The notes: generated from the letters alone by a model not told the origin. DNA of 32,000 bases from Erysipelotrichaceae bacterium OH741_COT-311 (GCA_003858585.1 RQZE01000006.1:60001-92000), one strand, 5' to 3'; counted from the first letter of the stretch, positions 3,533 through 4,708 are shown. A program made the numbers and translations.

Positions 3533-4708
3533 TTGCTTGGGAAAATAGAAAGCCCTCGCTTAGAAAAACTTGAAAAAGAGTTTTTAAAAAGTGGGGGCGA
3601 ATGGGTTGAAAAATCTATAAATTATTTATTCCAAGTTATATCAAGTAAAGCAATTTTTCATGCTAATCAGGTTGATATATATGACGAACAAATAGACGGA
3701 AGTTATCCATATATTGTAAGAAGCACAAATAAAAATGGAGTTAGAGGTTATTTAAAACTTTTAGAAGTATATTTAAATCCATCAAATACAATAACATTTG
3801 CACAAGATACATTTGTTGCGTTTTATCAGGAACAAAAATATTTTACTGGAAATAAAGTGAAGATTTTATATCCTAAATTTCCAAATTTTAATAAAAAACA
3901 AGGGCTTTTCATTTCATCACTAATAAATAAATCTATAAAAGATATTACATGGGTAAATTTTTCCTATATGGAAAAATTTATCGAGGAACTCGAAGCGGAA
4001 CACATTGAGGAACTCGAAGCGTATTTAACTACAACTGGACTGAAAGATTATACTTTAACGAAAAAAGATATGGAAACACTTGACAAGTTTAATAAGTTGT
4101 CAGAAAATCACTTAGACAGACAGACAGACAGACAGACAGACAGACAGACAGACAGACAGACAGACAGGATTAGATTAGAGGATGTTTTAGATTGGCAAAC
4201 TTCTATTAAAGAACTTAATCCATTACACTTAGATAAACTTTCTTGTAATGGGGATAAGTATCCTTTCTATGGTCAAGCTACTGAAAATAATGGAATTATA
4301 AGTTATATATCTTTAATTGACAGTGCGTTAAATAATAAAAATGCTTTGCCAACTATTTTGATACACTCTAACAATCAGAATATAGTTTACTTGGACTCGC
4401 CATTCTATTTAAAAGATGGACATGGAGCAACGAGTGTATTACAAAATAAAAATATGAACAAACATAGTGCTTTATACCTTATGGGAGCTATACAAAAAGT
4501 TATCAAAGACAGATTCAATTATAACGCTAAAGCAACTAAGATAGGATTGAAAAATACGCTTGTTGAAGTGCCGTTAAAGGATGGTAAATATGATTTTCAA
4601 TTTATGGAAGATGTTATAAGAGTTATTGAAAAACTTGTTATAAAAGATGTTGTTATATGGACTGATAAAAAAATACAAGCAACAAAAAAAGTAGTAGTTA
4701 AAAATTAA
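3533..4708 (+). CDS. hsdS: Type I restriction-modification specificity subunit (HsdS), full two-TRD architecture
   Basis: There are two target-recognition-like halves (SYPYIVRSTNKNGVRGY / KYPFYGQATENNGIISY). A central helical region (FIEELEAEHIEELEAYL) and a C-terminal helical region (FMEDVIRVIEKLVIKDVVIW) separate and follow them. TTG start after AGAGGG. The gene immediately follows the hsdM fragment. Confidence 0.8.
   Translation: MLGKIESPRLEKLEKEFLKSGGEWVEKSINYLFQVISSKAIFHANQVDIYDEQIDGSYPYIVRSTNKNGVRGYLKLLEVYLNPSNTITFAQDTFVAFYQEQKYFTGNKVKILYPKFPNFNKKQGLFISSLINKSIKDITWVNFSYMEKFIEELEAEHIEELEAYLTTTGLKDYTLTKKDMETLDKFNKLSENHLDRQTDRQTDRQTDRQTDRIRLEDVLDWQTSIKELNPLHLDKLSCNGDKYPFYGQATENNGIISYISLIDSALNNKNALPTILIHSNNQNIVYLDSPFYLKDGHGATSVLQNKNMNKHSALYLMGAIQKVIKDRFNYNAKATKIGLKNTLVEVPLKDGKYDFQFMEDVIRVIEKLVIKDVVIWTDKKIQATKKVVVKN
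3983..4021 (+). repeat. Exact 15-nt direct repeat gaggaactcgaagcg x2 (24-nt period) in the hsdS central helix
   Basis: Copies at 3983-3997 and 4007-4021, encoding EELEA twice. Locally GC-rich relative to the surrounding sequence. Confidence 0.9.
4114..4167 (+). repeat. Perfect tetranucleotide microsatellite (AGAC)13.5 inside hsdS
   Basis: 54 uninterrupted nt counted directly. It is in frame and encodes DRQT x4 + DR, between the central helix and TRD2. Confidence 0.97.

Follow-up and report, generated by a model that had tools for sequence, protein, structure and literature searches.

An expanded AGAC tract at the hinge of a BcgI-like specificity gene: a likely relic of a slippage-prone family hot spot

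A long tetranucleotide repeat inside a gene for a restriction-modification specificity (S) subunit raises the question of whether slippage of the repeat still switches the gene, or whether the repeat has outlived the system to which it belonged. Such a repeat was found in a 32,000-nucleotide window, the whole stretch of DNA analysed here, which is part of a 128-kb contig of Erysipelotrichaceae bacterium OH741_COT-311. The tract occupies positions 4114 to 4167 (+) and consists of 13.5 copies of AGAC with a period of 4 and 100% matches (Tandem Repeats Finder, score 108). It is the strongest repeat in the 32 kb, every other repeat scoring 58 or less with the same program. The 12-mer AGACAGACAGAC occurred 11 times, each time within the tract, while 100 shuffles gave an expectation of 0.10 and a maximum of 1. 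The tract lies in frame within an open reading frame of 391 aa (3533-4708, +) and is translated as DRQTDRQTDRQTDRQTDR, corresponding to 4.5 copies of DRQT at about residues 194 to 211 of the S subunit. Tandem Repeats Finder, direct reading and the reading frame therefore bore out the initial annotation, which had described a perfect 54-nt AGAC tract in frame inside a specificity gene.

The right flank of the tract, GATTAGATTAGAGGAT (4168-4183, +), is conserved in the S family and encodes in frame (R)IRLED, the start of TRD2. It contains the TAG triplets 4171-4173 and 4176-4178, one for each alternative frame, exactly as had been claimed. When slippage was simulated in silico, full-length S was obtained at 7.5, 10.5, 13.5 and 16.5 units, and the other unit counts gave a product of 205 to 225 aa that ended in DRQD or DRQTGLD before the stop codon. 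The simulation thus agreed with two further expectations, namely that a change of three units keeps the frame and that a slip of one or two units leaves a clean TRD1 half of about 215 aa. A terminator-like hairpin with a T-run (4719-4745, +) was located directly 3' of the S gene. A promoter scan gave 17 sites, compared with 14.2 expected, and was uninformative.

The length of 54 nt was taken from one assembly, and the Logan assembly SRR9701139 is the sole other assembly of the strain. It is 100% identical and breaks 30 nt into the tract on both sides, as short-read k-mer assemblies cannot cross the tract. That the tract or its length was made by mis-assembly is nevertheless very improbable, since this independent assembly enters the repeat from both flanks without a mismatch, AGAC tracts occur at the same site in many unrelated assemblies, and 54 nt is shorter than an Illumina read by a wide margin.

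The open reading frame 3533-4708 starts with TTG and matched Pfam family PF01420 (Methylase_S) in two stretches with an E value of 2e-12. In an AlphaFold model based on 60 homologs (mean pLDDT 80), the protein has two globular domains, and long helices span residues 143-167 and 355-389. The predicted layout comprises TRD1 (about 20-140), the CR1 helix (143-167), a linker helix (177-191), the repeat loop (192-209), TRD2 (210-350, first strand 210-214) and the CR2 helix (355-389). A sequence search of the PDB with the S profile gave no match; a fold search gave matches, the best Foldseek matches of the model being the Type I S subunits 1YDX, 1YF2 and 5YBB_D and the BsaXI S subunit 8W0P_C. According to the model, the protein is an HsdS-like subunit with the order TRD1-CR1-TRD2-CR2, of which TRD1 is incomplete. 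Pfam, AlphaFold and Foldseek together supported the view that this is a specificity gene with two TRDs and the tract between them. The TTG start was considered as a possible lesion and was rejected because the intact relative L104 has TTG at the same position.

A change of three units adds or removes four residues, and the initial annotation had proposed that the tract acts as a spacer-length switch of the EcoR124 kind, in which such changes alter the distance between the TRDs and hence the length of the non-specific spacer. The dimerisation helix of EcoR124I contains 2 copies of the 12-bp TAEL repeat and that of EcoR124II contains 3, and this changes the spacer from N6 to N7 (PMC3874165). Besides this precedent, the spans of the in-frame alleles of the family (18, 30 and 54 nt) are separated by multiples of 12 nt. 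However, residues 192-209 were predicted as coil, with a pLDDT below 50 at 198-207, in a single AlphaFold model whose alignment covers the repeat region thinly, with few sequences. The loop follows the separate linker helix and precedes the first TRD2 strand, and it thus lies outside the CR1 and CR2 helices. Homologs with the same conserved TRD2 have hinge linkers that range from very short to much longer and vary in sequence, so that linker length appears to be free across the family, and DRQT is polar and charged without a heptad pattern. Consequently, the proposal was not upheld, and we give hardly any credence to a ruler function of the AGAC tract.

A true helix repeat suits such a function better. 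Two copies of GAGGAACTCGAAGCG, with a period of 24 nt, encode EELEAEHI-EELEA at 3983-4021 (+), within the helix 143-167. This EELEAE(R/H)I repeat is present in 1, 2 or 3 copies among near-identical S alleles, the window allele having 2. Copy numbers differed between P0028 and P0039, between P0030 and P0041 and between L119 and L104, and variation was also seen in L120, P0032/P0047, P0051/P0074, P0062/P0093 and P0088. If any repeat sets the spacer, it would be this repeat in the CR1 helix and not the AGAC tract. By analogy with EcoR124, the 24-nt repeat is a candidate for the element that sets spacer length in a Type IIB family.

The gene had been taken for the hsdS of a Type I system, and this assignment did not hold when the neighbouring genes of its relatives were compared. 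About 60 of the 80 related loci, which come from many phyla, carried a fusion ORF of 670 to 700 aa followed by an S gene of about 380 aa, and HsdR was absent. The intact relatives in C. perfringens and Lagierella likewise encode a 672- to 674-aa N6_Mtase protein immediately 5' of S, without HsdR. In 27 full-length fusion partners the residues P62-D63...E76-x-K78 near the N terminus were invariant, and so were the MTase motifs DxxxGSxG and NPP(F/Y). The Pfam N6_Mtase domain covers residues 338-625 of the fusion, and the MTase part resembles Type I M proteins and RM.BsaXI. S is encoded directly 3' of the fusion gene, overlapping or abutting it; in the window, the RM remnant ends at 3548 and overlaps the start of S at 3533. 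No HsdR-like ORF and no second MTase were detected in the window. Because a PD...ExK and N6-MTase fusion of about 675 aa pairs with S and HsdR is absent, the family can be assigned, as far as gene content indicates, to the two-gene BcgI-like Type IIB layout (nuclease-MTase fusion plus S) and not to classical Type I. A protein search with the M fragment yielded only partial or short proteins of 250 to 500 aa, with the full-length fusion not among the matches, and the fusion family is therefore described from the loci. In Ezakiella coagulans DSM 20705 (L019:3979-6582), a continuous ORF of 867 aa spans the RM gene together with the first half of S and is either a natural RM-S fusion or an additional lesion of a decayed locus.

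The module in the window is damaged in several places. The remnant of the RM fusion gene (2671-3548, +) covers about residues 383 to 674 of about 675 aa according to tblastn and alignment. The MTase ORF 2662-3519 aligned solely to residues 385-654 of a 674-aa relative (82% identity). DNA homology to intact RM genes begins near 2673, about 80 nt past the unrelated CPBP protease gene, and the first 380 or so codons, for the nuclease domain and the front part of the MTase, are missing. When an intact fusion was compared with the whole window by tblastn, the matches were residues 383-654 (2671-3486) and, in another frame, residues 643-674 (3450-3545); the 32 kb contained no further RM homolog. The frame change, located by tblastn, is most simply explained by a 1-nt deletion near 3487-3490, as judged by eye. 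The S gene itself has an in-frame deletion, the junction of which is TGG GTA AAT (W140-V141-N142; 3950-3958, +). It has removed 22 residues at the end of TRD1 (...ITW/VNFSYM...), including the conserved LPxLNGxI, and this segment was present in all 15 full-length homologs of the alignment. The confidence of the AlphaFold model was lowest at this junction (pLDDT below 50 at residues 137-141). Further downstream, a MobQ/MobA-MobL relaxase is a pseudogene (4776-5203, +) consisting of the pieces 4776-4880 and 4919-5203, which are split by stops. The exact S and MTase-fragment proteins were absent from the protein collection, while the neighbouring GAPDH, Prs, WhiA and KilA-N proteins were matched exactly.

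These lesions bear on the claim that the tract is a working switch in this genome. Slippage would then toggle between full-length S and a TRD1 half-S, which would act with an RM or M protein from another place in the genome, and thereby change specificities. Type I hsdS genes with SSRs between the TRDs yield an S protein that is either complete or truncated (Atack et al. 2019, PMC7383803); examples are NgoAV with a poly-G tract and the (GCAA)n tracts of Haemophilus parasuis and Pseudomonas aeruginosa, and as few as three tetranucleotide units already slip measurably (PMC7383803). The window gene agrees with this published pattern, as its tract lies between the TRDs, the unit is not divisible by 3 and both alternative frames contain stops. 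Its ORF is open at present, frequent slippage is expected at 13.5 units, and ON (in-frame) as well as OFF (out-of-frame) alleles exist in the family. However, no functional methyltransferase partner of S is encoded in cis: about 380 N-terminal residues of the partner present are gone, among them the nuclease and the beginning of the MTase fold, and the 3' end of its gene carries a frameshift. TRD1 is without 22 conserved residues, no other RM homolog was found in the 32 kb, the relaxase gene next to S survives only as a pseudogene, and the island as a whole is an accessory remnant. A live switch is thus improbable, and the claim of a working system was not sustained. It had also been stated that the repeat would be a fossil if no compatible partner existed anywhere in the genome. 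This comes close to the evidence, with the partner search covering the 32-kb window.

The accessory nature of the region was evident from its distribution. Positions 1 to 5900 form a strain-variable island with genes for a KilA-N protein (78-938), a membrane protein (1054-1755) and a CPBP protease (1918-2592), followed by the RM remnant, S and the dead MobQ relaxase. No such island precedes rapZ in the strains L092, L094, L095 and L097, all of which have an identical WhiA. The right boundary of the island lies at about 5855-5903. In L085, a slightly different strain with 99.7% identity, the truncation junction is the same. The gene order RM-S-relaxase is also that of the intact element L104, a metagenome contig in which a complete RM gene precedes S, the relaxase gene follows S, and S itself contains (AGAC)7 in frame. 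A megablast search of 950-5850 against the PLSDB plasmids gave no match.

Other features of the island also vary. The CPBP protease shares a protein cluster at 90% identity with a Streptococcus suis protein. In L090 (Logan SRR34261890), window positions 849-1036 are joined straight to about 1861-2613, and the gene for the 233-aa membrane protein (1054-1755) is gone. Seven short-read contigs with the CPBP gene (loci L085-L091) all stop at window positions 2612-2690. Because they all stop there, it is suggested that the sequence 3' of the CPBP gene is found in at least two contexts in canine oral metagenomes and that the assembly graph branches at the truncation junction.

Related S genes were compared by their hinge span, i.e. 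the number of nucleotides from the Leu codon to the conserved ATTAGATTAG. An AGAC or AGAA tract was present at the same hinge with spans of 10 to 54 nt, seven alleles being in frame and six out of frame. An in-frame span of 18 nt was found in L105, which is the nearest relative of the window allele and matches its left flank exactly, in L106-110 (one protein, seven contigs) and in L111. In-frame spans of 30 nt were found in L104, in Lagierella, where the tract is interrupted, and in Peptoniphilus raoultii, where it reads (AGAA)6.75. The window allele, at 54 nt, has the longest span seen in the family. Among the out-of-frame alleles, L119 (14 nt) has an intact RM gene and open S halves save for a scaffold gap in TRD1, both halves of L120 (38 nt) are open as far as the contig end, and the halves of L115-118 (10 nt, 15 contigs) are open if TGA is read as Trp. 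The other three bear additional lesions: L112-114 (14 nt) an extra frameshift in TRD1, Ezakiella L019 (22 nt) an extra upstream TAA, and Criibacterium L023 (10 nt) heavy decay. L019 and L023 were therefore rejected as clean OFF variants, and because of the added lesions in L019, L023 and L112 part of the OFF class consists of mere pseudogenes.

Half of the six out-of-frame alleles (L119, L120, L115) thus have otherwise open S halves. In addition, L104 (30 nt, ON) and L119 (14 nt, OFF) are 94.7% identical across 2.8 kb. Because of the in-frame and out-of-frame alleles and this ON/OFF pair, the hinge is, at the level of sequence comparison, a genuine length-variable frame switch over evolutionary time. 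Counting units in related S genes, a check suggested in the initial annotation, showed that spans vary from 10 to 54 nt; the frame switch proposed there consequently stands for the family, but not as a working switch in this genome.

The clean OFF alleles were reached by a protein search with the CR1-linker-repeat peptide. This search returned only short ORFs (63-133 aa) and is biased against long proteins, and it therefore yields no ON:OFF ratio. A hinge-pattern search of metagenome contigs gave two matches, L104 and L103, of which L104 was informative; the same pattern had no match in viral contigs. L103 (Ga0126342_10103003) was rejected as a relative, being rich in microsatellites and unrelated to RM genes. 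It consists largely of GATA, GGCA-GATA and GACA microsatellites and matched the hinge pattern by chance, and it is probably of eukaryotic origin. In L112-L118 (ENA metagenome), genes similar to uvrB, smpB and EF-Tu were fragmented under table 11, and TGA stands at the codon of a conserved Trp close to the C terminus of S. For these two reasons, the host of L112-L118 probably reads TGA as a sense codon, to judge from these sequences.

The pseudogenes within the OFF class raise the possibility that the hinge is a purely neutral hot spot, in which an AGAC or AGAA microsatellite arising from the DRQTD codons knocks out S randomly and the out-of-frame alleles are not phase variants but dead genes. 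This would agree with the additional lesions in three of the six out-of-frame alleles and with the stability of short tracts across samples, the 18-nt allele being identical in seven contigs and the 10-nt OFF allele in 15. The TAG-rich flank, moreover, is composed of the commonest low-GC codons for IRLE. Yet there are clean OFF alleles in which the RM gene is intact and the halves are open (L119, L120, L115), two different units, AGAC and AGAA, have both expanded at one site, and tracts of 7 to 9 units are present in intact modules. SSRs between TRDs are also a recurrent and experimentally validated type of switch (NgoAV; PMC7383803). Taken together, a purely neutral hot spot is unlikely, though less so than a live switch in the window.

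The reading that we consider probable is that the tract belongs to a slippage-prone hinge of the BcgI-like S family and was expanded in a damaged copy, so that it is a relic and not a working switch. The AGAC tract would be a microsatellite at a hot spot conserved in one S-gene family, whose members are two-gene Type IIB-like modules (a fusion of about 675 aa plus S) on small mobilisable elements. A proto-repeat of the family, consisting of the codons for L-D-R-Q-T-D, would lengthen or shorten by units of 4 nt. Changes by three units would alter the number of DRQT copies in a flexible loop and be tolerated, while after any other change translation would end at the TAGs of the conserved ATTAGATTAGA flank, dividing S into a half with TRD1 and CR1 and a TRD2 half that is not translated. 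The module in the window would be a decaying remnant, with a truncated and frameshifted fusion gene, a damaged TRD1 and a dead relaxase, and because all three are damaged its 13.5-unit tract would be an expanded relic that at present controls nothing. This reading builds on the observed anatomy of the tract, the length and frame polymorphism of the family, the decay of the locus and the predicted location of the repeat in a loop. The expansion in the window would reflect relaxed constraint, and in intact relatives the half-S products may be functional.

Two points count against a relic. The S ORF has no interruption and keeps its frame, although the chance of this is one in three, and a perfect tract of 13.5 units is unusual for bacteria and could reflect selection for mutability, past or present. 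A possible but tentative extension concerns the intact family members. In these, the hinge would toggle between (RM)2S, which recognises an asymmetric bipartite site, and (RM)2(half-S)2, which recognises a palindrome, while the helix repeat in CR1 sets the spacer; on this view the window copy would have been disabled recently, and its tract would be the most expanded.

The main value of the locus lies in a lead at the level of the family and in a caution about phasevarion calls made from a repeat alone. For annotation, the partner genes need to be checked before a striking repeat in hsdS is taken for a working phasevarion. The literature searched contained no description of variation driven by repeats in the S genes of Type IIB systems. 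The splitting of S by repeats, which is documented for Type I, seems to occur in BcgI-like Type IIB modules too, beside a variable repeat in the spacer helix. If this were confirmed, phase-variable specificity switching would reach a class of restriction enzymes for which, to our knowledge, it has had no prior description, and a natural series of alleles would be available for the engineering of Type IIB specificities. If both the hinge and the helix repeat act in the way outlined, small mobilisable elements of oral and gut Firmicutes would carry a repeat-driven specificity system with two dials that vary independently.

Among the closest known systems are BcgI and BsaXI, which the family resembles in its gene layout. 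BcgI has a PD...EXK motif with E53 and an A2B assembly (PMC3592470), and the assembly of BsaXI is (RM)2S (PMC11997821). As in these enzymes, the module consists of two genes, the fusion of the intact relatives has an N-terminal PD...ExK and a C-terminal gamma-type N6-adenine MTase, and a separate HsdS-like subunit has the order TRD1-CR1-TRD2-CR2. Sequence similarity to BsaXI, however, is confined to the MTase core (E value 9e-8), and the window copy, unlike BcgI and BsaXI, lacks the entire nuclease domain. With the SSR-bearing hsdS genes the family shares a repeat between TRD1 and TRD2 whose unit is not a multiple of 3 nt, length changes predicted to give full-length or TRD1-only S, and alleles that differ in tract length. 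It differs from them in that the partner is a BcgI-like nuclease-MTase fusion instead of HsdM plus HsdR, and in that the unit is AGAC (AGAA in one relative). Such switching of specificity is not expected from the window module, which is non-functional. The likeness to EcoR124I and EcoR124II lies in an in-frame change in the copy number of a short repeat in the centre of S. In contrast to those enzymes, the AGAC tract lies in a predicted loop past the helix and its unit shifts the frame, and the closer counterpart of the TAEL repeat is the 24-nt EELEAERI repeat at window positions 3983-4021.
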